In this document: piece by piece, positions 5,119 through 62,373 of the stretch
Numbering within the stretch: position 1 is the stretch's first letter
How the letters are laid out: every line of letters begins with the position of its first letter
Assembly (NCBI GenBank): GCA_964472315.1
Contig: CAYYJS010000002.1
Location: forward strand, 54,315-118,314
Direction of reading: 5' to 3'
Source of the DNA: an uncultured Victivallales bacterium
GTDB lineage: Bacteria > Verrucomicrobiota > Kiritimatiellia > UBA8416
DNA: 64,000 bases
Notes under the pieces: model-generated
Database searches by the model: none
What the model saw: the letters and a program-made list of their open reading frames with translations, nothing else
Told to the model about the DNA's origin: nothing
Program-made: the position numbers and the translations under genes

Positions 5119-6582
5119 ATGCGCAATCGGATGGAACTTATCAAACCAAGCCTGACAACCGCGACGCCGCCCAATGTGGTGCTGATCCTCATCGACGACA
5201 TGGGATGGCGCGACCTGACCTGCTGCGGCAGCACCTTCTACGAGACGCCGAACATCGATCGACTGGCCCGCGAGGGTATGTTTTTCACGGACGCGTATGC
5301 GTCCTGCCCGGTGTGTTCGCCCACGCGAGCCAGCATCATGACCGGGCGGTATCCGGCGACGTTGGGGATCACCGACTGGATCGATTGGCACGGGCGCATT
5401 CATCCGGTGCGCGGCAAGCTTGTCGACGTGCCCTACACCAAAGAACTATCGGCCCGGGAGCGCACGGTCGCCACCGCGCTCCGTGAGGGCGGTTACGCCA
5501 CGTGGCACATCGGCAAATGGCACTTGGGCGGGCCGGGGCACACGCCGGAGGACCATGGATTCGACGTAAACGTCGGCGGCTGCGAGTGCGGCAGTCCGGG
5601 GCGCGGCGGCTACTTCAGCCCCTGGTCGATTACGGCGCTGAAGGACGTGGATGTCCCCGCAGGCACCTACTTGACCGACTACCTGACCGACCGTGCGATC
5701 GACCTGATTCGCAACCGCGACGGGCGGCCATTCTTCCTCAACATGTGCTACTATCAGGTGCACACGCCGATTCAGGGCAAGCCGGAGAAGGTACGGAAGT
5801 ACACGGAGAAGGCGCGGCGTCTCGGTCTGGACCGCGTGACGGCGCTCGTCGAGGGCGAGCACTTCCCCTGCGAACACAAGAAGCACCTGCGAGTGACGCG
5901 GCGCGTGGTTCAGTCCGACCCCACATACGCGGCGATGATCGAATCGCTCGACGAGAACGTCGGTCGTCTGCTGGCGATGCTCGACGAACAGGGGTTGACG
6001 GACAATACGGTCGTTCTGTTCACGTCCGACAACGGCGGGTTGGCGACCGCCGAAGGGTCGCCGACGTGCAATGCGCCCGCTAAAGAGGGCAAGGGTTGGA
6101 TGTACGAGGGCGGCACGCGCGAGCCGTTGCTCGTGCGGTGGCCGCGAGTCGTCGCCGCCGGGTCGCGATGCGGTGTGCCGGTAACGAGCACCGATTTTTA
6201 TCCGACGCTGCTCGAAGCGGCGGGACTCCCGCTGGAGCCGGCGGCCCACAAGGATGGGGTCAGCCTGCTCGGCCTGTTGCGGGGTGCGGAGGCGCTGCCG
6301 CGCGCATCGATCTTCTGGCACTATCCGCATTACGGTAACCAGGGTGGCACGCCGGGCGCCGCGATTCGTTCCGGCGACTACAAGCTCATCGCATTCTTCG
6401 AAGACGCGCGGGTCGAACTCTACGATGTCCGCGACGACATCGGCGAGCGCGTGAACCTGGCGGCGGCCCGGCCGGAATTGGCGGCGCGGCTGCTGGCGGA
6501 GCTGCGTGCGTGGCAGGCGTCGGTCGAGGCGAAGATGCCGCGGGCGAACCCGGACTACGGGGCGGCCGTCGGGCAGGCGTAG
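5119..6582 (+). CDS. Arylsulfatase-family (formylglycine-dependent) sulfatase
   Basis: LILIDDMGWRDL followed by the CSPTRASIMTGRYP sulfatase signature (C-x-P-x-R). The start is taken at the internal MRNRMEL. The track ORF extends upstream through Arg-rich read-through. Confidence 0.85.
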   Translation: MRNRMELIKPSLTTATPPNVVLILIDDMGWRDLTCCGSTFYETPNIDRLAREGMFFTDAYASCPVCSPTRASIMTGRYPATLGITDWIDWHGRIHPVRGKLVDVPYTKELSARERTVATALREGGYATWHIGKWHLGGPGHTPEDHGFDVNVGGCECGSPGRGGYFSPWSITALKDVDVPAGTYLTDYLTDRAIDLIRNRDGRPFFLNMCYYQVHTPIQGKPEKVRKYTEKARRLGLDRVTALVEGEHFPCEHKKHLRVTRRVVQSDPTYAAMIESLDENVGRLLAMLDEQGLTDNTVVLFTSDNGGLATAEGSPTCNAPAKEGKGWMYEGGTREPLLVRWPRVVAAGSRCGVPVTSTDFYPTLLEAAGLPLEPAAHKDGVSLLGLLRGAEALPRASIFWHYPHYGNQGGTPGAAIRSGDYKLIAFFEDARVELYDVRDDIGERVNLAAARPELAARLLAELRAWQASVEAKMPRANPDYGAAVGQA

Positions 6583-6680
6583 ACGGGTTGCCGCTCGGCA
6601 TCCGTCCGACTCCTTGCCATGCAGGGGGTTTTGGTCGGGGCTCGGGTTTTTCCTGATGCCAAAAACAGCCGTCACCTGAG

Positions 6681-6709
6681 TTGACAGAACGTTCGTGCAA
6701 GTGGATGAT
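6681..6709 (+). promoter_or_regulatory. Candidate sigma70-type promoter (TTGACA-17 nt-GATGAT) for the sensor-kinase operon
   Basis: Perfect -35 hexamer TTGACA at 6681-6686. A 17-nt spacer follows. GATGAT is at 6704-6709, about 65 nt upstream of the kinase start. Confidence 0.3.
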
Positions 6710-6773
6710 ACGGCGGTGAAGCCGATGATGGTTGCGGTGCACGGATCTGACGTTGACGCAGAGGAACGACGGT

Positions 6774-8807
6774 ATGTTGACCGATGATACTCCCGTGATC
6801 GCGGTTCTGCTCGTGGAGGATGACGAGGACGATTATGTCATTACCCGTCACCTGCTGTCCGAGTCCAAGACGATCCGGTTTCAGCTCGATTGGGCGGAGA
6901 GTTTCAGCAAGGCCGAAGCCGGCCTGGCCGAGCGGCCGCCGGATGTCGTGCTGCTGGATCTCACGCTGCCGGACTCGCATGGCTGGAAGACGCTCGTGCG
7001 CATGCTGCGTGCCGCGCCGCGGTTGCCGGTGATCCTGCTGACGGGAAGCCGGGACGAGGCGCTTGGCGTGAAGGCTGTTCAAGAAGGCGCGCAGGACTAC
7101 CTTTTCAAAGGCTATCTGGACTGCGAGGGATTGACGCGCGCGATCCGGTATGCCATCGAGCGTAAGCGCGCGGAACTGGCCTTTAAGGAGTATCAGGAGC
7201 ACCTCGAGGAGATGGTCCAGGAGCGCACGACGGAACTGCGCCGGGCCAACCAGGAGTTGACGGAGCAGATTCAACATCGCATCCGTATCGAGCGCGACAT
7301 TGAAGACTCGCGCAACTATCTGCAGGCGATCGTCGCGGGTTCCCACGACGGAATCGCCCTGGTGGACGAACACGGGTGCTTCGAATTCGGCAACGACGCC
7401 TTTACCGAGACCCTCGGGTGGCCGCGGGACGAACTCATCGGGCAGCACGTTACGAAAGTGTTTCCGGATAATATTCTCACGTCCGTTCCCTTGCCATGGT
7501 CCGAGGAGCAACCGGACGAAGGCAGTTCCCGCGAGACGGACGTGGTTGCCAAGGACGGGCAGCGGCGCAGCCTTCTGGTCAGTCACCGACTGATCACCGT
7601 CGATTCGCATCCCAAATACTGCGTGGCGATGAAGGACATCACGGCGCGCAAGCGGGCCGAGACCGAGCTGCGACGGGCGATCGAGCAGCTCAAGGCGCAC
7701 GACAAGGCGAAGACGCAGTTCGTCTCCAACGTGTCCCATGAGCTGAAGACGCCGTTGGCCTCCATGACCTACGCCATCGACAACATGCTCAAAGGCATCG
7801 TCGGGGAGGTGTCCGAGCGGCTGCGGGCGTATCTGCACATGTTGAGGTCGGACGCCGAACGGCTGGGGCGTGCCATCGGGGATATCCTCGACATGAGCAG
7901 ACTGGAAGCGAACGCGCTGGCGCTTGACCGCGTCGTTCTACCGTTCGGTCGTTTTGTGCGGCATATCGTGGATGCGCTGCGGCTGCAGGCCGAGGAGAAG
8001 CGACAGGAACTGCGCGTGGCGATCGACGGCTGCGGCGGGTTCGTCGACTGCGATCCGCAGAAGATGGAGCGGGTGGTCATGAACATCATCCGCAACGCGG
8101 TGAAGTTCACGCCGGAACAGGGCGTGATCGAAGTGGCGGTTGCGCGCGCGGATGGCGGCGCCCTTATGTTGTCGGTGACCGATACCGGCATCGGCATTCC
8201 GCTGGAGCATCTGGATCATGTGACGGAGCGGTACTTCCGGGTTGGCGAGTATGTGGATGGAACGGGTCTCGGGCTGGCCATCGCCAAGGAGATCGTCGTC
8301 CTGCATGGCGGTACGTTGACCCTGCGCAGCCCCCCGCCGGGACGGGACCGCGGCACGCAGGTGGATGTCGCGTTGCCGGCGGTGGACGCGCCGACGATCA
8401 TGACGGTCGACGGCTCGGCGGACGTTCGGGATATCCTCAGCCGTCAGCTTGGCGGCGTTGGCTATCGGGTTGTGCCGTGCGCGTCGGCATCGGAGGCCTT
8501 GGAGCGCATCGCGCACGAGGCGCCGAGTCTGATCATGACGGACCTCGTGATGTCCGGGATGTCCGGGGTGGAAGTGATCGCCGCGATCCGGTCGAACCAT
8601 GATTGGCGGCGCATCCCGATGGTCGCCATGACCGGCGCCGAGTTGGATCGGGCCAGGCGCGAGATTCTCGAAGGGCTCAACATCCCGGCACTGGTCAAGC
8701 CATGGAGTCTTGACGCTTTGATCGAGTGCGTGGAGAACAGCGTGGTCGGTGACCGGTATCCGATGCATCAGGCGGGTATGCCGGAGAGGCGGGGTTATGG
8801 GCGATAA
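6774..8807 (+). CDS. Hybrid sensor histidine kinase, REC-coiled coil-PAS-HisKA-HATPase-REC
   Basis: N-terminal receiver (VLLVEDDEDDY ... VVLLDLTLPD). PAS segment. H-box VSHELKTPL. G-box DTGIGIP ... GTGLGLAI. C-terminal receiver (LIMTDLVMSGMSG). Confidence 0.85.
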   Translation: MLTDDTPVIAVLLVEDDEDDYVITRHLLSESKTIRFQLDWAESFSKAEAGLAERPPDVVLLDLTLPDSHGWKTLVRMLRAAPRLPVILLTGSRDEALGVKAVQEGAQDYLFKGYLDCEGLTRAIRYAIERKRAELAFKEYQEHLEEMVQERTTELRRANQELTEQIQHRIRIERDIEDSRNYLQAIVAGSHDGIALVDEHGCFEFGNDAFTETLGWPRDELIGQHVTKVFPDNILTSVPLPWSEEQPDEGSSRETDVVAKDGQRRSLLVSHRLITVDSHPKYCVAMKDITARKRAETELRRAIEQLKAHDKAKTQFVSNVSHELKTPLASMTYAIDNMLKGIVGEVSERLRAYLHMLRSDAERLGRAIGDILDMSRLEANALALDRVVLPFGRFVRHIVDALRLQAEEKRQELRVAIDGCGGFVDCDPQKMERVVMNIIRNAVKFTPEQGVIEVAVARADGGALMLSVTDTGIGIPLEHLDHVTERYFRVGEYVDGTGLGLAIAKEIVVLHGGTLTLRSPPPGRDRGTQVDVALPAVDAPTIMTVDGSADVRDILSRQLGGVGYRVVPCASASEALERIAHEAPSLIMTDLVMSGMSGVEVIAAIRSNHDWRRIPMVAMTGAELDRARREILEGLNIPALVKPWSLDALIECVENSVVGDRYPMHQAGMPERRGYGR

Positions 8808-10389
8808 CTCATTCTCGACGACGGCGAGGATCGACATCCTTCCGGGCGGTCAGCCGCCGTATGCGGGACGGAGCCCGGCGGAGCCGTCGCGCGCCGCGTC
8901 GCCGGGCGCCTTGCGCGTGGGCGGGCAGGAGTTCCAGCAACTGCTGCAGAACATTTATGACGGCGCGCTGATTGCCAAGCTTGACGGGGCCATCGTGGAT
9001 AGCAATCGGCGGATGACGCGGATGCTGAACCGGTCGCGGCGCGAGTTGTCGACGGCCACGATTTTCGACGTTATCTACGGCGCGGCGCCGGCGTTGCTCG
9101 ACGAGATTCTGGAAACCCTTGCCAACGACCAGTTCGTCCTGCTCCAGGCGGCTTGCATCCGGAGCGATCAGACGATGTTTCCGGCCGAGATCGCGGTCAA
9201 CCGCCTGGAACTGCCCCCCCACGCGTACCTGTGTTTCTTCGTCCGCGATACGACGGTGCGGAAGGATGCGGAGGATCGACTGCGGGAACGGTCGCTGGCG
9301 ATTCGCAACGCGGCGGATGGCATCGCCGTGGCGACGCTGGATGGCGCGGTGACGTATGCGAACCCGGCGATCGCCGAACTCTGGGGTGTCGACGACGTGG
9401 AACGGATGGTGGGTCGGAACCTGCGCGACCTCGTCCGCAACGGCGATGTGGCCGACCAGATCCGCGGCGCGATCGAGCATCGACTGTCATGGTGCGGCGA
9501 GGTGTCGTGTCGTACGGATCAGGGCAACCCATTCTTCGTGCAGTTGGCGTGTGCGCCGAACCTGGACGCCGACGACCAGCTTACGGGCATGGTGCTTTCC
9601 GTGACGGACGTGACGAACCGCATTCTTGCCGAGCGGCGCCTCGAGGGGGCGATGCAGGAGCTTGCCCGCTCCAACCAGGATCTTGAGCAATTCGCCTATG
9701 CGGTTTCGCATGACCTCCAGGCGCCGTTGCGCAAGATCGTCGCGTTCAGCGACATGCTCAACCGGTCGGCGGGCGCGCTTCCCGCGGAGTCGGCCGACTA
9801 TCTCCAGCGGATGCGCGATGCCGCCGCCCGCATGGGGGCGTTGATCGTCGGGTTGCTCGAGTATTCGCGGGTCAACACACGCGGACAGGTCTGGGAATTG
9901 GTGGACTTGAGCGTCGTGGCGCGGGCGGTCGTATCGGACCTCGACGCCGCGGTTCGGGAGCACGAGGCGCGTATCGAGGTCGGGGTGTTGCCGATCGTCG
10001 AGGCCGAACCGTTCCAGATGCGGCAGCTATTCCAGAACCTCATCGGCAATGCCATCAAGTTCCACCGTGCCAGGGTGCCGCCGCATGTTCGTGTGACGGC
10101 CGATGAGGCCGCGGTCGTCGATGCGACGGGCCGCACCTGCCGCCGCGTGGCGGTGATGGACAACGGCATCGGGTTCGATCCCGCGGATGCGGAACGTATC
10201 TTCGGTGTCTTCCAACGGCTTCACCGGCGAGACGACTACGAGGGTACCGGTATCGGTCTGGCGATCTGTCGGAAGATCGTGGACCGCCATGGCGGCGAGA
10301 TCCAGGTGACGTCGACGCCGGGAGAGGGTTCCTGTTTTACGGTGCGGCTACCCATCCGGCAGGGCGAAGCGGGAGGAGGGCGGGTGTGA
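8797..10389 (+). CDS. PAS-PAS sensor histidine kinase
   Basis: Two PAS-like segments. H-box AVSHDLQAPLRKI. N/G boxes NLIGNAIKF, DNGIGFD and GTGIGLAI. Start chosen at MGDNSF, overlapping the upstream stop. Confidence 0.8.
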   Translation: MGDNSFSTTARIDILPGGQPPYAGRSPAEPSRAASPGALRVGGQEFQQLLQNIYDGALIAKLDGAIVDSNRRMTRMLNRSRRELSTATIFDVIYGAAPALLDEILETLANDQFVLLQAACIRSDQTMFPAEIAVNRLELPPHAYLCFFVRDTTVRKDAEDRLRERSLAIRNAADGIAVATLDGAVTYANPAIAELWGVDDVERMVGRNLRDLVRNGDVADQIRGAIEHRLSWCGEVSCRTDQGNPFFVQLACAPNLDADDQLTGMVLSVTDVTNRILAERRLEGAMQELARSNQDLEQFAYAVSHDLQAPLRKIVAFSDMLNRSAGALPAESADYLQRMRDAAARMGALIVGLLEYSRVNTRGQVWELVDLSVVARAVVSDLDAAVREHEARIEVGVLPIVEAEPFQMRQLFQNLIGNAIKFHRARVPPHVRVTADEAAVVDATGRTCRRVAVMDNGIGFDPADAERIFGVFQRLHRRDDYEGTGIGLAICRKIVDRHGGEIQVTSTPGEGSCFTVRLPIRQGEAGGGRV

Positions 10390-12017
10390 GTGGAGAGACG
10401 CGGACGATCGCCGTTCTGCTCGTGGAGGACGACGAGGGCGACTATGTACTGACGCGGCGCCTGCTGGAGCAAGCGCGCGGGTGTCGTTTCGGAATCGTTC
10501 GGGCCGCCTCGTTGGCGGATGCGCGCGAGAGCCTGGCGCGGACGCCCTGCGACGTGGTTCTTCTCGATATGTCGTTGCCGGATTCGTCCGGATTGGAGAC
10601 GTTGCGGGCGGTCCATGAAGCGGCGACGGCGACGGCGATCGTGGTGCTGACGGGCTACGAGGACGACCGGGTCGCCGTCGACACGATCCATCGCGGCGCC
10701 GAGGATTACCTCGTGAAGGGGACCGTGACCAGCGACGGGATCGCCCGTTCCATCCGATATGCCATCGAGCGAAAGGCGGCCGCCGAATCCCTCAAACAGT
10801 ACCGAAGTCATCTCGAAGAACTCGTGGACGAGCGCACCGCCGAGTTGAAGGCGGCTAACGCGCTTCTCGTCGGGGAGGTCGATGCCCGGAGGAAGACCGA
10901 AGCGGATCTGCGCGACGCCATTGCCCGACTGGAGGATCTTGACCGTGCCAAATCGCGGTTCGTCACGAACGTTTCGCACGAACTGAGGACGCCCCTGACA
11001 TCGATGATCTACGCGGTCGGCAACCTGCTCCGTGGCGTCAAGGGGCCGCTCCCGGATGGCGTCCGCGACTATCTGGGGATGCTCCGCGACGATGCCCAGC
11101 GGTTGCGAGGCACGGTTGGCGACATCCTGGATCTGAGGCGGATCGAAGCCGGCACCCTGATTCTGGACCGCGTCAACGTACCGTTTGCCCGATTCGTCCG
11201 CCGGACCGTGGCGGATGTTCTGGCGCAGGCTGAAGCGCAGGGGACACCCCTTGCCGTGCATGCGTCCCGTGGCACCGGCTTTGTCCAGTGCGACCCGACG
11301 AAGATGAAGCGTGCGATCCTGAATGTCGTCCGAAATGCGATCGCGTTCTCGCCGGACGGGGGTCCGATCGACGTGTCGGTGGGCATCGATCCGGCGGACC
11401 CGTCCTTTCTGTCCGTGTCGGTGGAGGACCAAGGCATCGGCATTCCGCCCGAGTTTATCGACCGTGTGACCGAGCGCTACGTCAGGGTTGGCGAGCACGT
11501 CGAAGGCACGGGGCTTGGCCTTGCGGTTGTCAAGGAAGTGGCAAACCTGCACGGCGGGCGGCTGACGATCGCGAGTCCGCCGCCGGGCAAGACGGCGGGG
11601 ACGCGTGTGACGATTTCGTTGCCCCGCGGTTCGCCTGTGCGGGCGCTGGTCGTCGACGACGAGGACGGGGTGCGCGACCTGCTGCGGCGCCAGCTCACGG
11701 TCGACGGCTACGAAGTCTTTGCCGTCGGCAATGCCGTCGGCGTGGTCGGTGCCATCATCGAGCACGGTGTTGGCATCCTTGTGTTGGATCTCAACATGTC
11801 CGGCGCCGGCGGCGTCGGGGCCATCCACGAACTGAAGGCGTCTCCCGATGTGCGGCACATCCCGATCGTCGTGCTCACCGGGGCCGAAATCGACCCGGTG
11901 ACGCGGGAGCTGTTGGAGGCGTTCAGTATTCCGGCCATGGCCAAGCCATGGGATCAGGAAACGCTGTTGAATTGTCTTGAGGAATCCATTATTGGGAAGC
12001 ATTACTTGGAGCGGTGA
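10386..12017 (+). CDS. Hybrid sensor histidine kinase, REC-coiled coil-HisKA-HATPase-REC (paralog of 6774..8807)
   Basis: N-terminal REC nearly identical in pattern to the first kinase (LLVEDDEGDYVLTRRLL ... RYAIERK). VSHELRTPL. GTGLGLAV. C-terminal REC. Confidence 0.85.
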   Translation: MSGETRTIAVLLVEDDEGDYVLTRRLLEQARGCRFGIVRAASLADARESLARTPCDVVLLDMSLPDSSGLETLRAVHEAATATAIVVLTGYEDDRVAVDTIHRGAEDYLVKGTVTSDGIARSIRYAIERKAAAESLKQYRSHLEELVDERTAELKAANALLVGEVDARRKTEADLRDAIARLEDLDRAKSRFVTNVSHELRTPLTSMIYAVGNLLRGVKGPLPDGVRDYLGMLRDDAQRLRGTVGDILDLRRIEAGTLILDRVNVPFARFVRRTVADVLAQAEAQGTPLAVHASRGTGFVQCDPTKMKRAILNVVRNAIAFSPDGGPIDVSVGIDPADPSFLSVSVEDQGIGIPPEFIDRVTERYVRVGEHVEGTGLGLAVVKEVANLHGGRLTIASPPPGKTAGTRVTISLPRGSPVRALVVDDEDGVRDLLRRQLTVDGYEVFAVGNAVGVVGAIIEHGVGILVLDLNMSGAGGVGAIHELKASPDVRHIPIVVLTGAEIDPVTRELLEAFSIPAMAKPWDQETLLNCLEESIIGKHYLER

Positions 12018-12118
12018 CCGCATGTTGCGTGTGCGGTTCGCGCACGGGGCGGTAGTCTGTGGAAGCGCGGGATGCCCGCGGTTGCGCCACATGGTGAGGA
12101 AGAGAAAAGGGGGAAGCC

Positions 12119-12895
12119 ATGACGGAAGCGAAGAGATACACGATTCTGCTGATCGACGACAACCGGCACCTGACGGTGACGCTATCGGATTTCCTGACGT
12201 ATGAAGGGTACGAAGTCGTAACCGCGCGGTCCGGCGAGGAGGGGTTGAAGCGGCTCGAACACCTGAGGCCCGATCTGATCATCCTCGACATCAGCATGCC
12301 CGGCATGGGCGGCATGGGATTCCTGAAGCGGATTACCGGGACTGACGGCGAGACCCGCTATCCCGTGCTGGTTTTCACGGCGCGTTCGTCGATGGAGGAG
12401 TTCTTCGGAACCATTAAAGTGGCCGGTTTCGTGGCCAAGCCGTGTTCCGAGGCCGAGTTGCTGCATGAGGTTCGGGCTGTCCTTGTCGCCCGCGAGCCCG
12501 CTGAGGAAAAGCCGGTGGCGACCGTGCATTGCGTGCTGGTCGGAGAGGACGACGACGATGTGCTGCTGTCGTTGCGTCGGCGACTGGTCAACGAGGGTTA
12601 CCATGTCGAGGACGCATCGTCGGGGGCGGCCGTCCTCGAGAAAGCGGCGGCATGCCGTCCGTCCGCGATTCTTGTCAAGGAGGTCCTGCCGGGCATGAAC
12701 GGCCGCATCGTGGCCCCCCTGATTCGCGCCATGCCGAGCACGCGACATGTGCCGATCGTCCTGTACGACGACACCCGGTCGTTGAGCGAGGCGTCCAGGT
12801 TCGGGCGTCACACCCACCCCGAAGGCGTGACGGAGTACCTCCTGACGAGCGATGCGACGGACCTGATTGCCGTGGTTAACCGACTTCTCCTGTAG
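12119..12895 (+). CDS. Two-receiver-domain response regulator; second receiver degenerate
   Basis: REC1 has LLIDDNRH ... LIILDISMPGMGG. The second REC-like half has VLVGEDDDD but ILVKEV where the phospho-acceptor Asp is expected. Confidence 0.7.
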   Translation: MTEAKRYTILLIDDNRHLTVTLSDFLTYEGYEVVTARSGEEGLKRLEHLRPDLIILDISMPGMGGMGFLKRITGTDGETRYPVLVFTARSSMEEFFGTIKVAGFVAKPCSEAELLHEVRAVLVAREPAEEKPVATVHCVLVGEDDDDVLLSLRRRLVNEGYHVEDASSGAAVLEKAAACRPSAILVKEVLPGMNGRIVAPLIRAMPSTRHVPIVLYDDTRSLSEASRFGRHTHPEGVTEYLLTSDATDLIAVVNRLLL

Positions 12896-12901
12896 CCCGG
12901 C

Positions 12902-14068
12902 ATGACCAGAGGAAGCGGCATTCGCGGGAAGCGGGAACAGGGCGAGGAGGGGCTTCTGGCACCTTACGCCGTGCGGAGCACGGGGTCGTTCGGTCGGCGG
13001 CATCCGGAGCCGCCGCACGAGGTGCGGATGTGCTTCGAGCGCGACCGCGACCGCGTCATCCATAGTCGCTGTTTTCGTCGGTTGGAGTACAAGGCGCAGG
13101 TGTTTGTCAACGGTGTTACCGACCACTATCGTACCCGCTTGACGCACACGATGGAGATGGCCGCTGTCAGTCGGACGCTGGCCCGCTATTTCCGCGTGCA
13201 CGAGGACCTGACCGAGGCGATCGTGCTGGCGCACGATGTCGGCCACACGCCGTTCGGGCATTGCGGCGAGGATGCGCTCGACGCGTTGATGGCCGGTCAC
13301 GGCGGGTTCGATCACAACCGTCAGAGTCTGCGGTGGGTTGACCTGTTGGAGTCGCAGTATCCGCATTTCCCGGGGCTGAACCTGTCATGGGAAGTGCGGG
13401 CCGGCCTGATGAAACACGAGGCGGCGACCCGGGGCGCCGAGCTTGACGGCCATCCAATCGGTCCGCAGCCGTGTGTCGAAGCGCAGATCGCCGATCTGGC
13501 GGACGATATCACCTACTGTGCGCACGATACCGACGATGCGCAGGAAGCCGGCGTGCTGACGGAATCGATGCTGATGTCGCAGCCGCTCTGGCGGGAGGCC
13601 GTTAGCCAGACCGCGCGGCAGTATACCACCCTGACCGACGAGCAGCACCGGCGCATTACCGTGCGCAATCTCCTGGATATCATGGTGCGGGACGTCATGG
13701 ACACGAGCGGCGAGCGGTTGGAAGCGCTGGCGCCGGCATCGCGCGTCGCCGTGATGTCCGCCCCCATGCGTGTCGTCGCGCTGAGTTCCGGCATGGCGGA
13801 GATGGTGGCCGAGTTTCGCGCGTTTCTGTGCCGCGAGTTCTACTTCAACCCGGCCGTGCGCGACCGTAACCAGGAGGGAGTTGCGATGATGCGGCTGCTG
13901 TTTCAGCACTACCTTGCTCATCCCGAGTCGATGGGGCGCAAAGCCCGCGCGCGGATACCGACCGAGGGTCTGGAGCGTACCGTATGCGACTATCTTTCCG
14001 GTTTTACCGACCGCTATGCCCTTGAAGAATTCGGACGTCTCGGTCTCGGGGCAGGCAGGAACGCCTGA
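12902..14068 (+). CDS. dGTP triphosphohydrolase-like HD-domain protein
   Basis: FERDRDRVIHSRCFRRLEYKAQVF matches the dGTPase N-terminal signature. HD motif AHDVGHTPFGH. Confidence 0.8.
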   Translation: MTRGSGIRGKREQGEEGLLAPYAVRSTGSFGRRHPEPPHEVRMCFERDRDRVIHSRCFRRLEYKAQVFVNGVTDHYRTRLTHTMEMAAVSRTLARYFRVHEDLTEAIVLAHDVGHTPFGHCGEDALDALMAGHGGFDHNRQSLRWVDLLESQYPHFPGLNLSWEVRAGLMKHEAATRGAELDGHPIGPQPCVEAQIADLADDITYCAHDTDDAQEAGVLTESMLMSQPLWREAVSQTARQYTTLTDEQHRRITVRNLLDIMVRDVMDTSGERLEALAPASRVAVMSAPMRVVALSSGMAEMVAEFRAFLCREFYFNPAVRDRNQEGVAMMRLLFQHYLAHPESMGRKARARIPTEGLERTVCDYLSGFTDRYALEEFGRLGLGAGRNA

Positions 14069-26151: not shown

Positions 26152-26793
26152 ATGACCCTGACCGCGAGTGTGATGTTGACCGTGGTCGTGACCACGGCCG
26201 CTTGCGTTGTTCCATCGGTCGCGCAGACGCGGACGGGGGAGTACGGCGCCGGACGGGCGGGGGCTGAGGCCGAGACCGTGCGCATCCGCAAGTTAAACGG
26301 TCTTTCGCCGCGGTCCGTGGTAACCACGCCGGTCTATGGGTCGAGCGTCGGTCGCAGTGCGAAGCCGCCACGCGAATGGCTTGAGGTTCAAGTGATTTAC
26401 GACACGGCGCCGGCGTGGATCGACGAGTTGGTCATCGAGTACTTCGTCATGAGCATGGACCGTACGGAAGGCCGCAACACCTACTCCCTGTTCAAGACGA
26501 TCGTTCGCTATCGCGATGTGGAACGTGACCGTAACCACATCGGCGTGGCCTATCTGCTGCCTTCCGCGTTGAAGCGCTACGGCCGCGTCGTGGCGGTTGC
26601 CGTCGAGGTCAGCCACGATGGCAAAGTCGTGGCCTCCGAGACGGATACGGGCATCACGTTGCCTCCGGGGTGGTGGCGAAGCCCCGCGGTTGTCGAAAAC
26701 AAGGATATGACCGTTCGAGAGGGGTATTTGGTGGAGAAGTCCAAGTCGCCGTTCGCCTTGGTCAATGTGGATGACTATGAGGTGGCCAAGTAG
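26152..26793 (+). CDS. Hypothetical secreted protein, first gene of the pilus-like operon
   Basis: GGAAAGGTGG RBS 6 nt before ATG 26152. Signal peptide MTLTASVMLTVVVTTAACVVPSVAQ. Its stop TAG overlaps the GTG start of the next gene. Confidence 0.5.
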   Translation: MTLTASVMLTVVVTTAACVVPSVAQTRTGEYGAGRAGAEAETVRIRKLNGLSPRSVVTTPVYGSSVGRSAKPPREWLEVQVIYDTAPAWIDELVIEYFVMSMDRTEGRNTYSLFKTIVRYRDVERDRNHIGVAYLLPSALKRYGRVVAVAVEVSHDGKVVASETDTGITLPPGWWRSPAVVENKDMTVREGYLVEKSKSPFALVNVDDYEVAK

Positions 26794-28463
26794 TGTCGCT
26801 CTTCGAAAGTGACCGTGTCATCGCGCTGGATATCGGAGCCAGCAAGATCGTACTCGCCGAATTCGGGGTTTCCCGCGGCGGCGAAATCGAACTGCTTCGC
26901 TATGGCATCGAGAAGCAGTCGGGCGACATGGGTACGGAGGCTGACCAGTTGGCGTACATCGCCGCCAACGTACGGTCGTTGATGCGCGAACAGGGCATCA
27001 AGCCGGCGCCGCTGGTGATGTGCGTTTCGGGGCAGGCCGTGTTTCCGCGGTACGTCAAGCTGCCGCCGGTAAGTCGTGACAAGCTTCAGCAGATCGTCCA
27101 GTACGAGGCCGAGCAGAACGTACCGTTTCCCATAAAGGAAGTGGTTTGGGATTACCAGTTGCTGGGCGGCGAGGATGGCGAGCAGAATGTCATGCTCGTC
27201 GCGGTGAAGATCGAGAACGTCAAACGGTTGACCGATGCCGTGCAGACGGCCGACCTCGAGCCGGAGATCGTCGACGTCGCCCCGATGGCGCTTTACAACA
27301 CCGTTCGTTACAACTATCCGAATCTAGCCGGATGCACGATGATCCTCGATATCGGCGCCCGGTCGTCGAACCTGATTTTTATCGAGGAATCGCGAATCTT
27401 CAGCCGCAGTATCCCCGTTGCCGGAAACGCCATCACCCAGGAAATCATGAAGGCCTTCGACGTGCCGCATGACGAGGCCGAGGCGTTGAAGCGCGAGCAC
27501 GGTTTTGTCGCCTTCGGCGGCGTCTTCGCCGGTCCGGACGATGAGATCGCGGAGCGTGTCTCGAAGATCATGCGCAACGTCCTGACGCGCCTGCATGCCG
27601 AAGTGAACCGTTCGATCAATTTCTACCGCAGCCAGCAGGGCGGTTCGCCTCCGAATCTTGTCTTGTTGTGCGGCGGCTCGTCCGTGATTCCGCACGTCGA
27701 CACGTTCTTTCGCGAGAAGCTGCAGGTGGACATCGAGTATCTGAACCCGTTTGCCAGCGTCGTTGTCGGCGATGAAATCGATGCCGCCGCGATCAACCGC
27801 GACCTGCACCTGCTCGGGGAGGTTGTCGGCCTCGGACTGCGTCGGGCGCTGACGTGCCCCGTCGAGATCAATCTGATGCCGCCCGACCTCGTGGCCCGCA
27901 AGGAGTTCCGCAAGCGGCAGCCTTATTTCGTCGTTTCCGCGGTCGCCTCGGTGCTCGCCATGCTGTGTTGGTGGGTGTACTTCCACCGGATGGGGAATGT
28001 GATCGACGAGCGTGCCGGTATTGTCCGCGAGAAGATCGCCGCGTTCCGCGGGATCGAGGCGCGGTTGTCCGAGGCCGTTCGGGATCGCGGGTTTGCGCAG
28101 GCGAGGCTTGCGAAACTGGCTGCGCCGATCGCCATGCGCGGACGTTGGATCGAGTTGATCGATGCCGTGCACGCGTGCATGTGGGATGGCATGTGGGTGA
28201 CGGGGTGGAAGCCGGTTGTCGAGAATGGCCGGGTTGTGCGTATCCACCTGACCATGCATGCGTTCGTGGACCGTATGCAGAACACGCCCGAGGGCACGGC
28301 CGCCGAACGTTTCCGAAACGCGCTGCGGGACCGCCCGGAGTTTGGCGCCGACACCGACATCGCCAGCGAGATGGGGATCGGCGTCGGCGGGTTCCTGCGG
28401 AAGTTCGAGATGAAGGTTGTCGTGGCCGAGGCGCCGAGCGTCAGGGCGGTTGAGGACCGATGA
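26793..28463 (+). CDS. pilM: Type IV pilus assembly protein PilM (actin-like ATPase fold) fused to a PilN-like transmembrane/periplasmic domain
   Basis: N-terminal VIALDIGASKIVLAEF. The rest of the first 350 aa has the PilM/FtsA-like pattern. A single TM helix follows (QPYFVVSAVASVLAMLCWWVYF), then a 150-aa periplasmic tail. Confidence 0.75.
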   Translation: MSLFESDRVIALDIGASKIVLAEFGVSRGGEIELLRYGIEKQSGDMGTEADQLAYIAANVRSLMREQGIKPAPLVMCVSGQAVFPRYVKLPPVSRDKLQQIVQYEAEQNVPFPIKEVVWDYQLLGGEDGEQNVMLVAVKIENVKRLTDAVQTADLEPEIVDVAPMALYNTVRYNYPNLAGCTMILDIGARSSNLIFIEESRIFSRSIPVAGNAITQEIMKAFDVPHDEAEALKREHGFVAFGGVFAGPDDEIAERVSKIMRNVLTRLHAEVNRSINFYRSQQGGSPPNLVLLCGGSSVIPHVDTFFREKLQVDIEYLNPFASVVVGDEIDAAAINRDLHLLGEVVGLGLRRALTCPVEINLMPPDLVARKEFRKRQPYFVVSAVASVLAMLCWWVYFHRMGNVIDERAGIVREKIAAFRGIEARLSEAVRDRGFAQARLAKLAAPIAMRGRWIELIDAVHACMWDGMWVTGWKPVVENGRVVRIHLTMHAFVDRMQNTPEGTAAERFRNALRDRPEFGADTDIASEMGIGVGGFLRKFEMKVVVAEAPSVRAVEDR

Positions 28464-29548
28464 AAAGCAAACAGGTCATTCTGGTATCCATCTGCGGCGT
28501 GGGCGTCATCCTCTTCGCGCTGGCAGGCTTCCTGCTTGTGCGCGGGTTCGTGAACTTCAGCGGGGCGATCGAGAAGTTCAACAAGGAGAAACAGGCGCTG
28601 GGGCATTACTACCAGAAGAACCCGTTCCCGTCCGAGGCCAACATCCGCCTCGAAGAAGACAACGCGCAAATGTTGAACGCGTGGCATGAACAGCTCTTCA
28701 AGCGTCTGATCGCCAAGAATGTCGTCAGCACCGAGGACAGCGGATCGCGCTTTCGACAGAACTATGACGAGACGAAGAAACGTCTGCTGGGCGCGGCGAA
28801 GGACGTGCAAATCGCGGGTGGCAACACCTTTGCCTTCGGCTTCGACCGCTACTCCGGTACCGGTGAACTTCCGCAATCGTCGGAGGTGCCGGTATTGATG
28901 GAACAGCTTGCGATCGTCGAGCGGTTGTGCGGCATCCTGTTCGAGAATGGCATCAAAGCGATGGGGGCGGTGCGCCGCGACGTCGTGGAGTCGGCGTCCA
29001 CCACCGGCGGATCCGTGACGGTGCCAGGTGGTCAGCCCGGCGTGGGTTCCGCGCCGCCGGGACGTCCCGTGCGCTCGGGCGCACCGGTTGGTCCGGCCCC
29101 GCTCGTGCCGCCGAAGGCCCGGCGAAAAGCCGTGCCCGGCGACGAACCGACGGAACCCATGCGCCCCGTCGGGAAGATGTATTCACGGCTGCATTTCGGC
29201 TTCGACTTTCGCGCCAAGGAAAGCGCTTTGCTTGGTATTCTCAACGCGATGGCATCGAACGACATGTTCATTGTCATGACGTCGATTTCGTTCGAGGCGG
29301 GCGTTCCCGAGATGATGCCCGTGGCCGTGCCCGTCGTATCAGGAGGCGATGCCGCGGCGATCCCCGCTTTGCCGCCCGCCCCCGTTCCGGCGGTGGGCGC
29401 TCCGGCGGAGACAGGCAACGTGCCTCAGGCATGGGAACGACGCAAGGACGAACGCATTGTGAGTGGGCCTGTGCACGAGATCCCCATGGATGTGACTTTG
29501 GAACTCGACGTCTATAAATTCCAGCCGGAGTCGCACCATGGCGATTAG
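28460..29548 (+). CDS. PilO-like bitopic periplasmic protein (Amuc_1100-position protein)
   Basis: GAGGA RBS. N-terminal TM helix. Coiled-coil periplasmic segment. Pro/Gly-rich linker (PGGQPGVGSAPPGRPVRSGAPVGPAPLVPP). Globular C-terminus. Confidence 0.5.
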   Translation: MKSKQVILVSICGVGVILFALAGFLLVRGFVNFSGAIEKFNKEKQALGHYYQKNPFPSEANIRLEEDNAQMLNAWHEQLFKRLIAKNVVSTEDSGSRFRQNYDETKKRLLGAAKDVQIAGGNTFAFGFDRYSGTGELPQSSEVPVLMEQLAIVERLCGILFENGIKAMGAVRRDVVESASTTGGSVTVPGGQPGVGSAPPGRPVRSGAPVGPAPLVPPKARRKAVPGDEPTEPMRPVGKMYSRLHFGFDFRAKESALLGILNAMASNDMFIVMTSISFEAGVPEMMPVAVPVVSGGDAAAIPALPPAPVPAVGAPAETGNVPQAWERRKDERIVSGPVHEIPMDVTLELDVYKFQPESHHGD

Positions 29549-30608
29549 CCTGAACATCCGCGGCGGGTTTGCGCACCTGTGGCGGCAGTACGATAAGCTC
29601 ATGGCGTTCCTGGCGTTGGCGCTGCTGCTCGCCTCCCTGGTCTATCTGGCCGTGCGGGTGGGGCTGATTCAGAGCATGAAACGCGACTTCGACATGGAGA
29701 TGAAGAGCCTGCGCGCGATGCACGAAAAGGCGGCGACGGTTGCCGCCGACGTCTTCGATGCCGCCGTGGCAGGGCTCGACAAACCGGTCTCCCTGGGGCA
29801 CCAGGCGTGGACTAACGTCGCGTTTTCGGTTCCCGAGGTGCGTGTTACGTGCACCGATCAACGGTGTCAGCGGCCCGTGCCCTATGCGGCCGCGACCTGT
29901 CCTCTGTGCCTGAGCCCGCAGCGCGAGGACAAGACGGAAGTCGAGCCACCCAAGGACAGCGATGGCGATGGCATGCTCGACGATTGGGAATTGCAGTACG
30001 GACTGGACCGGTACGACGCCGGGGACGCCGCGAACGACACCGATGGCGATGGGCACAAGAATCTCGGTGAATTCCTGGCCAAGACCGACCCGACCGATCC
30101 GGCCAGCCGTCCCCCTGTCATCGATCAGTTGCGCGTGGAGAAGGTTTCGAGCGTGAGCTTCGGCATCCTGTTCAAGAGCCGAGTTACGACCGGAAAAGGC
30201 GAGCGCTTCGGTCTGAACTACAGACAGGCCGGGCAGATTAAGACGGACTTCGTCGGCGTCGGGGATACCGTGGCGGGGTTCCTCGTCAGCAAGTTCGACC
30301 ACAAGACCAGAGATGTCGATCAGCCGTACAAGCACAAGCAGGACGTCTCGGAACTGACGCTTGTCCGCGGGGACCATACCATTGTGCTTGTTCGCGGGCA
30401 GGACTACAACGAGACCGAACAGACCGCGCACTTCGTGTCGCTATTCGACGATGCGAAGTATCTGGCCAAGCAGGGCGAGTTTCTGACGGTCGACGGGTCC
30501 AGGTACGAGGTTATAGAGATTGACACTCGCGGTGAGCGTGTTGTATTACGGCCGGAAAACGATTCCGGCCAGACAGTGGTTGTACGGCGTCTCACGGTGC
30601 CCCGGTGA
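29538..30608 (+). CDS. Membrane-anchored periplasmic protein with Cys4 zinc-ribbon and two DxDxDG calcium-binding motifs
   Basis: TM helix LMAFLALALLLASLVYLAV. CTDQRC ... CPLC. DSDGDGMLDDWE and DTDGDGHKNLGEF are thrombospondin-type-3/dockerin-like motifs. C-terminal beta-rich domain. Confidence 0.5.
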   Translation: MAISLNIRGGFAHLWRQYDKLMAFLALALLLASLVYLAVRVGLIQSMKRDFDMEMKSLRAMHEKAATVAADVFDAAVAGLDKPVSLGHQAWTNVAFSVPEVRVTCTDQRCQRPVPYAAATCPLCLSPQREDKTEVEPPKDSDGDGMLDDWELQYGLDRYDAGDAANDTDGDGHKNLGEFLAKTDPTDPASRPPVIDQLRVEKVSSVSFGILFKSRVTTGKGERFGLNYRQAGQIKTDFVGVGDTVAGFLVSKFDHKTRDVDQPYKHKQDVSELTLVRGDHTIVLVRGQDYNETEQTAHFVSLFDDAKYLAKQGEFLTVDGSRYEVIEIDTRGERVVLRPENDSGQTVVVRRLTVPR

Positions 30609-30679
30609 AGGGGTGGCCGTGATGGCTCGTGTTTGTCCTCGCTAGCGGGGTGTGAGAGAATCCCAAGGAGATGTTCTTC

Positions 30680-33600
30680 ATGCAAGACGATCGGCGGTTC
30701 ATCACGACATGTTCCATTCTGTTGGCCGCATTTACGGTGGCGGCGTATGCGCAAACCGGTAAGGACGAGAGCGGTACGATGGCCTTCGAGGATCTTGCGA
30801 TCGAGAGCGCGGTGGAAGGGGCGCTACCGACGGTTTCGGCGGATGACGACCTCCTCAAGACGTTGATGTCCGGCACCGAGGCGGATGTTCCCGTTGGCGC
30901 GATCGATGTAGGGAAAACGCTTCCGACAGTGCCCGATGGCAAGTCCGCGGTGCTGACGCTGGACGATGTTCCGGCGAGCGACTTGGCCGTGATCGAGGGC
31001 GCCGAAGCTCCGGCCGTGGATGTCGCTCCGGTCGAGGAGAAGGGCGTTGACACGCGCGGATCGGCTGCGGTGGCCGCCGCAGCCGAACCGCCCGTGAATC
31101 TGGTTGACGTTGCGACCGAGCTTGGTCTTACGGGGGAGACGGAAGTCGTGCCCCCCATGCCACGCGCCGCGGTTGCGGCGCCGCCGACGGACGACCTTGC
31201 GGATCTGCTGGCCGGCGAGGAGGAAACCGTAACCGTACCGTCCGTCCCGGCGCCTCCCGTCATTCCGGTTTCGTTGGCGGAAGAGGTTCCCGTCGTGGAA
31301 TCCGTCACACCCTTGGAAACGGTTCCGGAAGAGACGGCGACGGTTTCCGCGGTTGTCGACAAAGTCCCTGCCCCGCCTGTCGTGACCGATGACATAGGAA
31401 TCGAAGACCTCATCAAGGAACTTGCAGGCGAGACCGAGGCCGAGATGGCTATCGAGCGGGTTCCGATCGAAACACCCCAGCCTCCCGCGTCTGTCGACGT
31501 CGTCCCGCCGCCCGCTGAAGACGTCCCTCCCGCACCGGTGGTCGCGCCCGTCGAAATCGTCGATCAGCCGCCGGAGTTTGTGGACGACATGGCCATCGAT
31601 GCCGACGTGCTCAAATCCCTGACACGCGAGGCACGCGCCGACACGACGACGGCTGCTGTTGCGGAGGCGCCCGCCATGGAGCTTGTCATCGAAGGCCTGA
31701 TCGATGAAGCCGAACTCGCCGTCGAGCCGCCGACGGCGCCGCCGCCGGCCCGAGTCGAAAAGCCGGTTCTGCCGATCGAGGAAACCGTCGCCGAACCGGT
31801 CGGCTCACCGTCCGTGGCGAAACCGCTTCCGCCCGTCGGAAAAACGGTAGATACTCCGACACCTGCGGTTGCCGAGGACATGGGTGCCGCTGTCGAGAAT
31901 GTGACCGCGACGGGTGAGCCTGCGATTGCTGAGCGGGCCGTTCGTAATCGGTCCGATGTCGCTCTGGACACGTTCGCGGTTCAGGAGTCCCTGAAGCGTA
32001 TCGCGGAAGAGGCGCATGGGCTGGAGAGCCTCCAACTGGGCGAGCAGGCGCTTGCCGATCGCCAGTTTCAGAAGGCCGTGACGCGGTTCGACGAAGCGTT
32101 GCGCTTCATCCCTGAGCGTGCCGACACGGTGGAATCGCGGGGCCGCGCGCGTCGTGGTCTGGCCGCGGCGTACTATGTGCAGGCGCTATCCTTCGAGCGC
32201 GAGAACGAGCTCGATAAGGCACTGGCTGCGGCCATCAACGCCGTCAACTACGGGTATATCAAGGCCGAATCCACGGTTCGCCGGCTCAAACTCAAGATCG
32301 AGAAGGGCCCGATCGCCCCGCCGCCGACGAAGGATCGCCGATGGGAAGAGGAGTCGTATCTCGACATCCAACGACAGATTCAGGAGTGGTTGAAGCGGGG
32401 GCGCGAAGCCTATTTGGCGCATGAATACGAGAAGTCGCGTGGGGCGTTCGAATCCGTCCTGGCGCGTGACCCGCACAACAAGGAAGCTATTCGCATGCTG
32501 CGGCGCGCCTCCGACAAGATGTACGACCGGGCGTCGATGGAGCTGGAATCGACGCGATCGCGCATGATGGAGTCGGTGCGTGACACTTGGAATCCGCGCG
32601 ACTATGGCATATTGGAGACGCCGATGGAGGCCAAGGTCGGACGTGCGGCCACGAAGCCGGTCGACGAGATCGAACGGGAGAAGATCCTGGCCAAGATGCA
32701 GCAGATCAGGATTCCGGAGGTCGATTTTCGGCAGGCGAACATCCGTGATGTGATCGATTTCCTGCACAGCCAGAGCGTCGAGAACGACACTACGACGGGC
32801 GAGGGGCGCAAGGGCGTCAACTTCATTCTCAAACTGGACGAAGGCGCCGCGAAGGCTGGTGGCCGGGTCACGCCTGCCGCATCCACCGATCCGTTCGCCG
32901 CCACGGCCGATGTATTCGGGGGGCCGGCGGCGGCCGCTCCGGGCGCCGGCGCCGACAACCTGGTGACGTTCGGCGCGCTCGACATTACGCTGAAGGAAGC
33001 GCTGGACATTGTCGTCGACATCGCACACCTCAAGTATCGGATCAAAGAGAGCGTCGTGATGATCGTTCCCTTCGATGAAGCATCGGGCGAGATCATCCAT
33101 CGCATGTACGACGTCTTGCCGTCTTTTGTCACGAAGTCCGGCGAATTGAGCGAAGCCTTGCGGTCCTCCCGTAGCGACCGCGGCGGCGGCGATTTTATCC
33201 CCATGGGCGAGCCCGGTGGCGGGGGCGGTGCGCCCAGCGCCGAGCAGGACTGGAAGGTGGTGTTTACGGAGATGGGTGTCGAATGGCCGCAACGGTCATC
33301 CATCAAGTACGTGCCGACGATCGGCAAGCTGATTGTCGCCAATACGGCCGAAAACCTGACGGTCTTCGAAAAGGTGCTATCGGTACTCAATGTCATTCCG
33401 TATCAGGTGGAAATCGAGGCCCGCTTCGTGGAGGTCGCCCAGACGGATATCGACTCGCTCGGACTCGAGTGGTTACTTACCGACAACTGGGAACTTGCCG
33501 AGAAGAAGACGGATGCCGGGTTGCCGCTGGCGGCGCGCGAGCGCTTGGTGCTGAACGCGAATGTCAACTCGGGCGGGTTCACCAAGGGGAATCGGTTCCT

Positions 33601-52434: not shown

Positions 52435-53103
52435 ATGAAAATGTACAAGTTAGGGGCAATCTCAAGTGTGGTGTTTTTTTTCGGAGTTGTTGTGCAGTCG
52501 CAAGCGGTGCTGAGTGTAAATATCGCTGGAGGCGGTGATTCGGTGCTTTATAACAGTTCGGGAATTGCGCTGAGTGATTCCGGTCTCGTCTTTGAACTCA
52601 TTGTTGATACAGACAACAATACCGATATAGCAGGTCTGGTAACTTCTAGGATGCTGAATATGACAGGCGATTCGGTATTGCTTGGCGGCGTTCATGCGTC
52701 CGCTGTGAATGACCTGGTTGTCGGATTTTACAACTGGACGTACGATTCCGGAGTCCATTTCATTCAGGAGGGGCTTGGCTATGAGCATGAATTCTCCGTG
52801 CCAGATGCGCATGCGTCAGACGCCTTCTATATCCGTTGGTTCAATGCGGATAAGAGCGAAGCAGGTTTCATCTATTCGGATTCGGACTCTTGGGCCACGC
52901 CTCCAGATTCAGGGTCATCAATTCTCACGCCGGACATTAGTTACTGGGTCTATTCGACGACGACACGAGTGGCTGGCAATGATGGCACCATGAACGGTTC
53001 ACTCGGTTGGCAGACCGTTGCGCCGGTGCCGGAGCCCACATCGCTCGCGTTGTTGGCGATCGGTATGGCGACGTTAGCCGTTAGCCGTCGGCGTCGCACT
53101 TAA
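52435..53103 (+). CDS. PEP-CTERM sorting-domain protein (exosortase substrate)
   Basis: Signal peptide. The C-terminus is VPEP-TSLALLAIGMATLAV-SRRRRT, i.e. PEP motif, TM helix, then a basic cluster. Confidence 0.8.
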   Translation: MKMYKLGAISSVVFFFGVVVQSQAVLSVNIAGGGDSVLYNSSGIALSDSGLVFELIVDTDNNTDIAGLVTSRMLNMTGDSVLLGGVHASAVNDLVVGFYNWTYDSGVHFIQEGLGYEHEFSVPDAHASDAFYIRWFNADKSEAGFIYSDSDSWATPPDSGSSILTPDISYWVYSTTTRVAGNDGTMNGSLGWQTVAPVPEPTSLALLAIGMATLAVSRRRRT

Positions 53104-53200
53104 GTCGACGGGTATTTGATACGCAGCGGGGAGCTGGCCATGGGTCAGCTCCCCGTTTTCTTTCTTGTACTCGAGCGATGCTTCCCGCTTACTGAATCCG

Positions 53201-62258: not shown

Positions 62259-62373
62259 GGGGTCAAGGTAGACATTTCGGGAGGGGAAAGCAAGTGCGGG
62301 AGGGGCTTGATTACCGGCCCTTAACATGCTAGAAGTGGTTCCACGGTGTGCAACAGCGGAGGTTTCACGGATA

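Follow-up and report, generated by a model that had tools for sequence, protein, structure and literature searches.

In a 64,000-nucleotide stretch from an uncultured Victivallales bacterium (Kiritimatiellia; assembly GCA_964472315.1, contig CAYYJS010000002.1, positions 54,315 to 118,314 of the forward strand; hereafter the window), a block of four same-strand genes (6774-12895, +) codes for three histidine kinases, K1, K2 and K3, and a response regulator, RR, which consists of two receiver (REC) domains, REC1 and REC2. REC2 is a pseudo-receiver, in which the fold is recognised and the phospho-acceptor aspartate is absent. RR is a member of a large family, as yet uncharacterised and almost wholly restricted to PVC bacteria, and this family is the new element of the analysis. 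Judged from the homologous sequences, the lysine at the acceptor position of REC2 is a conserved hallmark of the family and no one-off degeneration. As for the way in which the block works, we favour, with slightly better than even confidence, a kinase-to-kinase cascade that converges on RR as a stand-alone receiver/pseudo-receiver adaptor. The genes and domains concerned are the following.

6774-8807 (+): K1, 677 amino acids, ATG start
8797-10389 (+): K2, 530 amino acids, soluble, without a receiver
10386-12017 (+): K3, 543 amino acids, GTG start within the GTGA overlap with K2
12119-12895 (+): RR, 258 amino acids, REC1 and REC2, without an output domain
12143-12472 (+): REC1 of RR, residues about 8-125
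12530-12889 (+): REC2 of RR, residues about 138-257, pseudo-receiver
12677-12679 (+): AAG codon of Lys187, the phospho-acceptor position of REC2

The pseudo-receiver of RR and its protein family

All six receiver folds of the block were aligned to Escherichia coli CheY, whose sequence was checked against PDB 1djm. The residues found at the catalytic positions are listed below; four of the six folds are fully canonical.

K1 N-terminal REC: Glu15/Asp16, Asp62, Thr90, Lys112; canonical
K1 C-terminal REC: Asp546/Gly547, Asp590, Thr620, Lys642; KPW motif
K3 N-terminal REC: Glu14/Asp15, Asp61, Thr89, Lys111; canonical
K3 C-terminal REC: Asp424/Asp425, Asp468, Thr498, Lys520; canonical, KPW motif
REC1 of RR: Asp13, Asp14, Asp57, Thr87, Lys107
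REC2 of RR: Glu143/Asp144; Lys187 for CheY Asp57, Asp217 for Thr87, Thr243 for Lys109

Pfam matches Response_reg twice in RR, which ends at residue 258, and finds no output domain in it; there is no GGDEF, so that RR is not a PleD-type regulator by composition. REC1 has all five catalytic residues together with the aromatic switch residue Phe104, and was thus correctly described as intact in the original prediction, which had been made from the DNA sequence alone. In REC2 the acidic pair Glu143/Asp144 is kept, as is an aromatic residue (Tyr240) three positions before that of the catalytic lysine (K-3), and the other three catalytic residues are lost. The pseudo-receiver earlier proposed for REC2 is therefore recovered not only at the acceptor but also at the equivalents of Thr87 and Lys109.

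The acceptor region of REC2 reads AILVKEVLPGMNG and aligns gap-free to PleD (IILLDVMMPGMDG), to 3t6k (ALICDVLLPGIDG) and to E. coli CheY, with two canonical landmarks, Pro191 and Gly195, at four (D+4) and eight (D+8) positions past the acceptor. Since the alignments are without gaps and the proline and glycine fix the register, Lys187 is the equivalent of CheY Asp57; the comparison to CheY that had been proposed as a check thus confirms the original placement. As Lys187 fills the acceptor site, REC2 cannot be phosphorylated on an aspartate. In the AlphaFold2 model of RR (predicted local distance difference test score, pLDDT, 89.6), beta3 ends at residue 187, with Lys187 at its C-terminal end, and the (beta-alpha)5 fold of REC2 is intact, the pLDDT being >90 for most of the domain. 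REC2 alone matches receiver structures with an E-value of about 1e-7, and the nearest two-domain structure to RR is PleD. An aspartate in a shifted register, which would have overturned the earlier claim, is not present: the sole acidic neighbour is Glu188, poorly conserved and found in only 29/81 sequences (the 80 loci introduced below and the window RR). A register shift onto Glu188 was rejected, since it would give Pro at D+3 and Gly at D+7 and break both landmarks. A sequencing error at Lys187 was rejected as well, AAG being two base changes away from GAC/GAT and the lysine being conserved in homologs.

A search of 5.8 billion proteins with RR gave >1,100 matches, the best 120 of which are almost all two-receiver proteins of 250-280 amino acids from metagenome-assembled genomes of Kiritimatiellia, Lentisphaerota and Verrucomicrobiota; in these 120, the REC2 acceptor is Lys in 119 and Arg in 1. 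A scan of species-representative genomes yielded 80 RR-family loci, nearly all in PVC bacteria, with two or three paralogs frequently present in one genome. REC1 is canonical in 80/80 of them (Thr87 is Ser in one), and the REC2 acceptor is Lys in 48, Arg in 22, Asn in 6, Pro in 3 and Ser in 1, and never Asp. Finally, 1.84 billion cluster representatives were searched exhaustively with a profile, which brought in a further 101 independent ones (50%-identity clusters, about 235-310 amino acids). The REC1 Asp57 is present in 101/101, and the REC2 acceptors are 68 Lys, 13 Arg, 11 Asn, 3 Ser, 2 Gln, 2 His and 1 Asp. Lys or Arg thus occupies the site in about 82-88% of members, and Asp occurs once in about 300 sequences.

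Two further positions stand out in REC1. The family has a Cys two residues past the catalytic Lys ('KPC') in 117/120 sequences (Lys107-Pro108-Cys109 in RR, 12437-12445), and an Arg two residues past the catalytic Thr (T+2) is invariant (Arg89 in RR, 12383-12385). Residues at K+2 and T+2 are known to tune the conformation of receivers and the speed at which they are dephosphorylated, and from its sequence the KPC cysteine could be redox-sensitive.

Overall identity within the family is only 35-57%, and the length is uniform, about 258 amino acids, across phyla. Glu143, Gly195, Tyr216 and Pro181 are near-invariant, and the surface of REC2 is strongly conserved (Glu143, Lys187, Asn194, Gly195, Tyr216 and Asp217). 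These patterns bear on the idea that REC2 is a decaying duplicate of REC1 in which the lysine is neutral. Pseudo-receivers are common, amounting to about 6% of bacterial receiver domains (PMC12632262), and the alpha4 region of REC2 is predicted with low confidence, both of which would suit decay. The intact, confidently modelled fold, the uniform length, the near-invariant residues and the retention of Lys or Arg in 70/80 loci and 83/101 cluster representatives despite low overall identity all speak against it. We consider decay largely refuted by this conservation and very improbable indeed.

In 40/80 loci, an nrdR gene lies 5-180 bp 3' of the RR-family gene on the same strand, and in a neighbour-joining tree all nrdR-followed RRs form one clade, with Lys, Asn, Arg or Pro at the acceptor. 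This arrangement in the sister clade points to a conserved operon that ties the RR family to the repressor of ribonucleotide reductase genes. The window RR falls in the other clade, whose members are almost all K-type and, with few exceptions, linked to a kinase, and adjoins there the loci L002, L003 and L004; nrdR is absent from the 64-kb window. A link to deoxyribonucleotide (dNTP) metabolism through the dGTPase-like HD gene (12902-14068) was considered and rejected: since the window clade is without nrdR, and no homolog of the HD gene was found in any related locus, the adjacency is read as coincidental.

Several observations were made on the gene order of related loci. The nrdR loci are L006 (nrdR 6490-6963, next open reading frame (ORF) 6984-7601), L008-L012, L026 and L030-L081. 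In 15 nrdR loci, nrdR is followed by a conserved ORF of about 205 amino acids without a Pfam match, which in L004 is found away from the RR gene. In two paralogous loci (L024, 10821-14249; L029, 2192-5584) an ORF of about 1130-1140 amino acids comes after the RR gene, and its N-terminus resembles, by eye only, a Ser/Thr protein kinase (HCDIKPDNILID motif).

Receiver-first hybrid kinases and the PAS kinase K2

According to Pfam, K1 has the order Response_reg - PAS - HisKA - HATPase_c - Response_reg, with a coiled linker after the N-terminal REC, and K3 the order Response_reg - HisKA - HATPase_c - Response_reg, with a long signalling helix in the corresponding place. Identity between the two proteins is 47% across the N-terminal REC with its linker and 48% across HisKA-HATPase-REC, which bears out the earlier view of them as paralogs with a receiver at each end; a PAS domain was, by this comparison, inserted in K1 between the shared parts. 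The motifs LLVEDDE[DG]DYV[IL]TR and IRYAIERK, on which the earlier view drew, are present in K1/K3. The phospho-accepting histidines are His322 in K1 and His198 in K3.

Among 36 homologs, the K3-type N-terminal REC shows no variation at Asp61 and Lys111, and a conservation of at least 90% at Glu14, Asp15 and Thr89. The AlphaFold2 model of K3 (pLDDT 88.6) shows a continuous helix over residues 116-215, from alpha5 of the REC through His198; in K1 the linker is broken up by the PAS domain. In a Foldseek search of K3 against the PDB, the top match is LvrB (8vc9). The Rec-controlled histidine kinases (Rec-HK), a class frequent in bacteria, have LvrB of Leptospira (Rec-DHp-CA) as their prototype (PMC13269768). 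With an intact N-terminal REC, a DHp-CA core and, in K3, a helical linker, K1 and K3 are predicted to be Rec-controlled histidine kinases of the LvrB type. Their layout had been called unusual, which does not hold: kinases that begin with a REC make up an established class of frequent occurrence, and the same lineages contain dozens of clusters of K3-like REC-HK-REC proteins (39-52% identity).

In the chain from LvrA through LvrB to LvrC, LvrB is activated by LvrA via receiver phosphorylation and coiled-coil formation (PMC13269768). The likeness to the Lvr system lies in the canonical receiver that comes first in K1/K3, in the long helix that leads to DHp-CA in the K3 model, and in an upstream kinase and a downstream regulator encoded alongside. 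Unlike LvrB, K1 and K3 add a C-terminal receiver, and K1 a PAS domain; sequence similarity to LvrB in structural alignment is low (18-19%); and the regulator is REC plus pseudo-REC, as assigned here from sequence, instead of REC plus an anti-sigma-like domain. A second precedent for a Rec-HK is Rhodospirillum CheS3, whose receiver is phosphorylated by CheA3 (PMC4436063), although CheS3 is a kinase of the HWE type and has two receivers at its N-terminus. In the 'four-component' system RedCDEF of Myxococcus, RedD, a dual-receiver protein as RR is, passes a phosphoryl group to the kinase-like RedE (PMC2755868). Both RedCDEF and CheA3/CheS3/CheY3 have, like our block, several kinases and receiver-only proteins encoded together, but neither has a close sequence relationship to it.

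The receivers at the two ends of K1 and K3 differ at K-3: a Tyr or Phe is retained in both N-terminal RECs, as in REC1 and REC2 of RR, whereas the C-terminal RECs have Ala and thus no aromatic switch residue. In the C-terminal REC of K1, moreover, the second metal-binding acidic residue (CheY Asp13) is replaced:

8412-8414 (+): codon of Gly547 of K1

K2 has the Pfam order PAS - PAS - HisKA - HATPase_c, with its phospho-accepting His305 in the H-box SHDLQAPLR. Among solved structures its kinase core matches 8f71 first and then bacteriophytochrome kinases (E-value about 1e-28), in line with the phytochrome-type H-box noted originally. Only PAS-family matches, and no GAF or PHY, were found by Pfam, so K2 is without the PAS-GAF-PHY photosensory set. 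K2 is probably not a bacteriophytochrome, only its DHp-CA core being phytochrome-like.

The phosphorelay question and a candidate cascade

About 55/80 loci have, on the strand of the RR gene and 3-260 bp upstream of it, the end of a gene for a PAS-HisKA-HATPase-REC kinase, and these partner kinases share a distinctive DHp with the pattern HD..K.QFVSNVSHELRTPLTSM.YA..N.L.G..GP....YL.M...D..RL..TV.DIL. Identity to the DHp consensus of 51 RR-adjacent kinases is 55-58% for K1/K3 (55% for K1) and 19% for K2. K1 and K3 are thus of the type that accompanies the RR family, and K2 is of a different specificity. In the closest loci, L002 and L003, a PAS-kinase followed by a REC-kinase occurs twice before the RR gene; in L004 the same kinase types lie downstream of it.

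The original prediction had called the block a phosphorelay. A scan of 44 called ORFs of the window, the four of the block and 40 more, gave no match to an Hpt domain (PF01627); it excludes small uncalled ORFs and genes beyond the window. The C-terminal REC of the hybrid kinases, which a relay would require to be phosphorylatable, is canonical in K3, has Gly547 in K1, and is often degenerate in the partner kinases, where the KPW motif is kept: in 42 partner kinases together with K1 and K3, Asp is present in 36/44, an acidic first residue in 25/44 and Lys in 26/44. REC1 is never degenerate. Because no Hpt was found and the kinase C-terminal RECs are degenerate, direct His-to-Asp transfer to REC1 is favoured, and the term phosphorelay is not upheld.

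A true multi-step relay would run from the His of K1/K3 to their own C-terminal REC, on to an unlinked Hpt protein or to a DHp that serves as phosphotransferase, as RedE does, and from there to REC1. Such a route could make use of the C-terminal REC of K3, which has all catalytic residues, conserved in K3-type homologs, and whose Ala at K-3 resembles the non-allosteric intermediary receivers of CckA (bioRxiv 10.1101/2022.06.03.494635); back-transfer from a receiver to a DHp also has a precedent in RedD and RedE (PMC2755868). It would have to proceed without any Hpt among the 44 ORFs and, in K1, through a receiver that lacks the second metal ligand. At related loci the C-terminal REC is often without the Asp, the acidic pair or the Lys, and the adjacent REC1 is canonical, so in those lineages RR must be fed without the kinase C-terminal REC. 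Considering both sides, we regard a true relay as unlikely.

In the cascade that we favour, K2 would receive a cytoplasmic cue via its PAS domains and phosphorylate the N-terminal RECs of K3 and K1. K2 is placed upstream because it is without a receiver of its own, has a DHp of other specificity, and corresponds to the order of PAS-kinase and REC-kinase in L002/L003. By analogy with LvrB, the N-terminal REC, when phosphorylated, would, via the long alpha5-DHp helix, turn on autophosphorylation of K1/K3, and K1 would add a signal from its own PAS domain. Gene pairing and DHp type suggest that the His of K1/K3 would then pass the phosphoryl group directly to Asp57 of REC1. The C-terminal RECs of K1/K3 would most likely be intramolecular sinks or shuttles and no obligatory relay step, because the aromatic switch is absent and K1 also lacks one metal ligand. 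In the pocket of REC2, the amine of Lys187 most likely pairs with Glu143, Asp144 and Asp217, and would substitute for Mg2+, fixing the pocket in one state. As output, phosphorylated REC1 would repack against REC2 in the manner of PleD, and REC2 would then dimerise or bind a target.

Three kinds of known protein can be set beside RR. In Caulobacter PleD, phosphorylation of REC1 repacks the REC/pseudo-REC pair and drives dimerisation (PMC12632262). PleD, the top two-domain match, shares with RR a canonical receiver followed by a non-phosphorylatable receiver fold, but has the order REC - pseudo-receiver adaptor - GGDEF, and RR is without GGDEF; in addition, REC2 of RR is closer in sequence to the first receiver of PleD than to its adaptor, and has a Lys within an acidic pocket that is preserved in other respects. 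Xanthomonas DrdR is a stand-alone tandem receiver that acts by contact with PilB and PilT and needs both domains for its function (PMC13507683). Like RR, it combines a functional receiver and a pseudo-receiver with no output domain, but in DrdR the pseudo-receiver comes first and the gene is an orphan, whereas RR directly follows its presumed kinases. Among aspartate-less receivers in general, a basic residue at the acceptor is found in only about 4% and may replace the missing metal ion, the beta5 Lys is kept in about 70% and the second residue of the acidic pair (DD2) in 29% (PMC4395418). REC2 resembles them in that the Pfam receiver model matches it, the acceptor Asp is absent and the first acidic residue is kept. 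In contrast to them, REC2 of the RR family has Thr or Ser for the beta5 Lys and keeps DD2. Since the beta5 Lys of REC2 is lost and a Lys stands at the acceptor, the positive charge of the pocket has in effect been shifted from beta5 to beta3.

Several points weigh against the cascade. Its wiring is inferred throughout. The C-terminal REC of K3-type homologs is mostly canonical (Asp468 and Lys520 at least 90% conserved), as would suit a genuine intermediate of a relay, and the gene for an Hpt protein may be located beyond the 64-kb window. A K2-like kinase stands beside a REC-first kinase only in the three closest loci, and none was found within the flanks of the REC-first homologs L035, L058, L062, L064 and L071. 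As the sister clade also has Asn, Pro or Ser at the acceptor, a basic residue there is preferred and not essential. Lastly, the predicted template modelling score (pTM) of the RR model is 0.52, and the relative orientation of REC1 and REC2 is uncertain.

RR might instead act mainly as a phosphate sink or as an allosteric feedback partner of the kinases, in the manner of DivK or other single-domain regulators. It would then have no downstream target of its own, and the sole role of REC2 would be to dock RR to K1/K3, perhaps at the C-terminal REC of these kinases. This would explain a regulator without an output domain, paired tightly and almost solely with one kinase type that bears a conserved KPW receiver-like domain, and the lack of a conserved downstream target gene in the clade of the window. 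It sits poorly with the strongly conserved surface of REC2 described above, and with the R-type members of the sister clade, which are usually without an adjacent kinase; as these loci are usually kinase-free, the function of REC2 appears independent of a neighbouring kinase. We rate a sink or feedback role as distinctly unlikely.

A bolder proposal is that the family represents a PVC-specific output class, in which Lys/Arg in the acidic pocket replaces both metal and phosphoryl group; this we deem improbable. We would extend the same low credence to its corollaries, that the pseudo-receiver is a permanently 'charged' interaction module or a binder of a phosphate-bearing ligand, and that the sister-clade module couples kinase input to NrdR and dNTP supply, given nrdR in 40/80 loci.

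Returning to the cascade, all parts of the block are of known kinds, and the fitting annotation for it is 'Rec-controlled kinase cascade' with a receiver/pseudo-receiver adaptor, in place of phosphorelay. The mode of action of bacterial pseudo-receivers is an acknowledged open question (PMC12632262). As a test case for it, the RR family is both clean and abundant, with one canonical and one dead receiver in a stand-alone protein, a basic residue in a preserved acidic pocket and an adjoining dedicated kinase. It also gives an initial way into the signalling of Kiritimatiellia, Lentisphaerota and Verrucomicrobiota, in which no characterised relatives of the block proteins were found.

Gene boundaries, neighbours and other observations in the window

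Both overlaps that the original prediction had reported between its four consecutive signalling genes are real: K1 and K2 overlap by 11 nt (8797/8807), and K2 and K3 by GTGA (10386/10389). The ORF of K1 opens with a TTG at 6732, 5' of the ATG start. Between K3 and RR lies a spacer of 101 bp that contains a purine-rich ribosome-binding stretch. Two elements were noted 5' of the block.

6610-6627: terminator-like hairpin, 3' of the upstream sulfatase gene
6681-6709 (+): promoter-like element TTGACA-17-GATGAT, a consensus match only (10/12 positions)

The promoter-like element, whose first base, 6681, is also where the original prediction had the block begin, lies 65 bp 5' of the K1 start codon. 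That the four genes form one operon is a part of the cascade as we favour it, and is held with the same modest leaning. None of K1, K2, K3 and RR has an NCBIfam match above cut-off. The neighbours of the block are housekeeping genes (trxB, sulfatase, dGTPase-like HD, gltX, glnS, eno, rho, tig, clpPX and others). The start of the dGTPase-like HD/HD_assoc gene is ambiguous: the longest ORF (12902-14068) begins 7 bp past the RR stop, and the public gene call (13028-14068) 133 bp past it.

A cognate output regulator, which had been suggested as something to look for, was searched for in the window; one other two-component gene was found (59688-62480, -), and nothing links it to the block. It codes for 930 amino acids with the Pfam order REC, GGDEF, REC, HD (HD_5/HD), the last of which we take to be HD-GYP. 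From this domain content, the protein is a possible cyclic di-GMP output.

Elsewhere in the window, the genes clustered at 26793-34396 (+) look like those of type IV pili or secretion; they begin with a PilM-like ATPase (26793-28463), go on with three ORFs without a Pfam match and close with a secretin of 1241 amino acids (30671-34396). Between 50000 and 54000, the G+C content falls to 0.57-0.59, compared with about 0.64 elsewhere, and this region contains ORFs without a Pfam match and a PEP-CTERM protein (52435-53103). The gene of the latter is followed by one for a glycosyltransferase-like TPR protein of 1063 amino acids (53165-56356).

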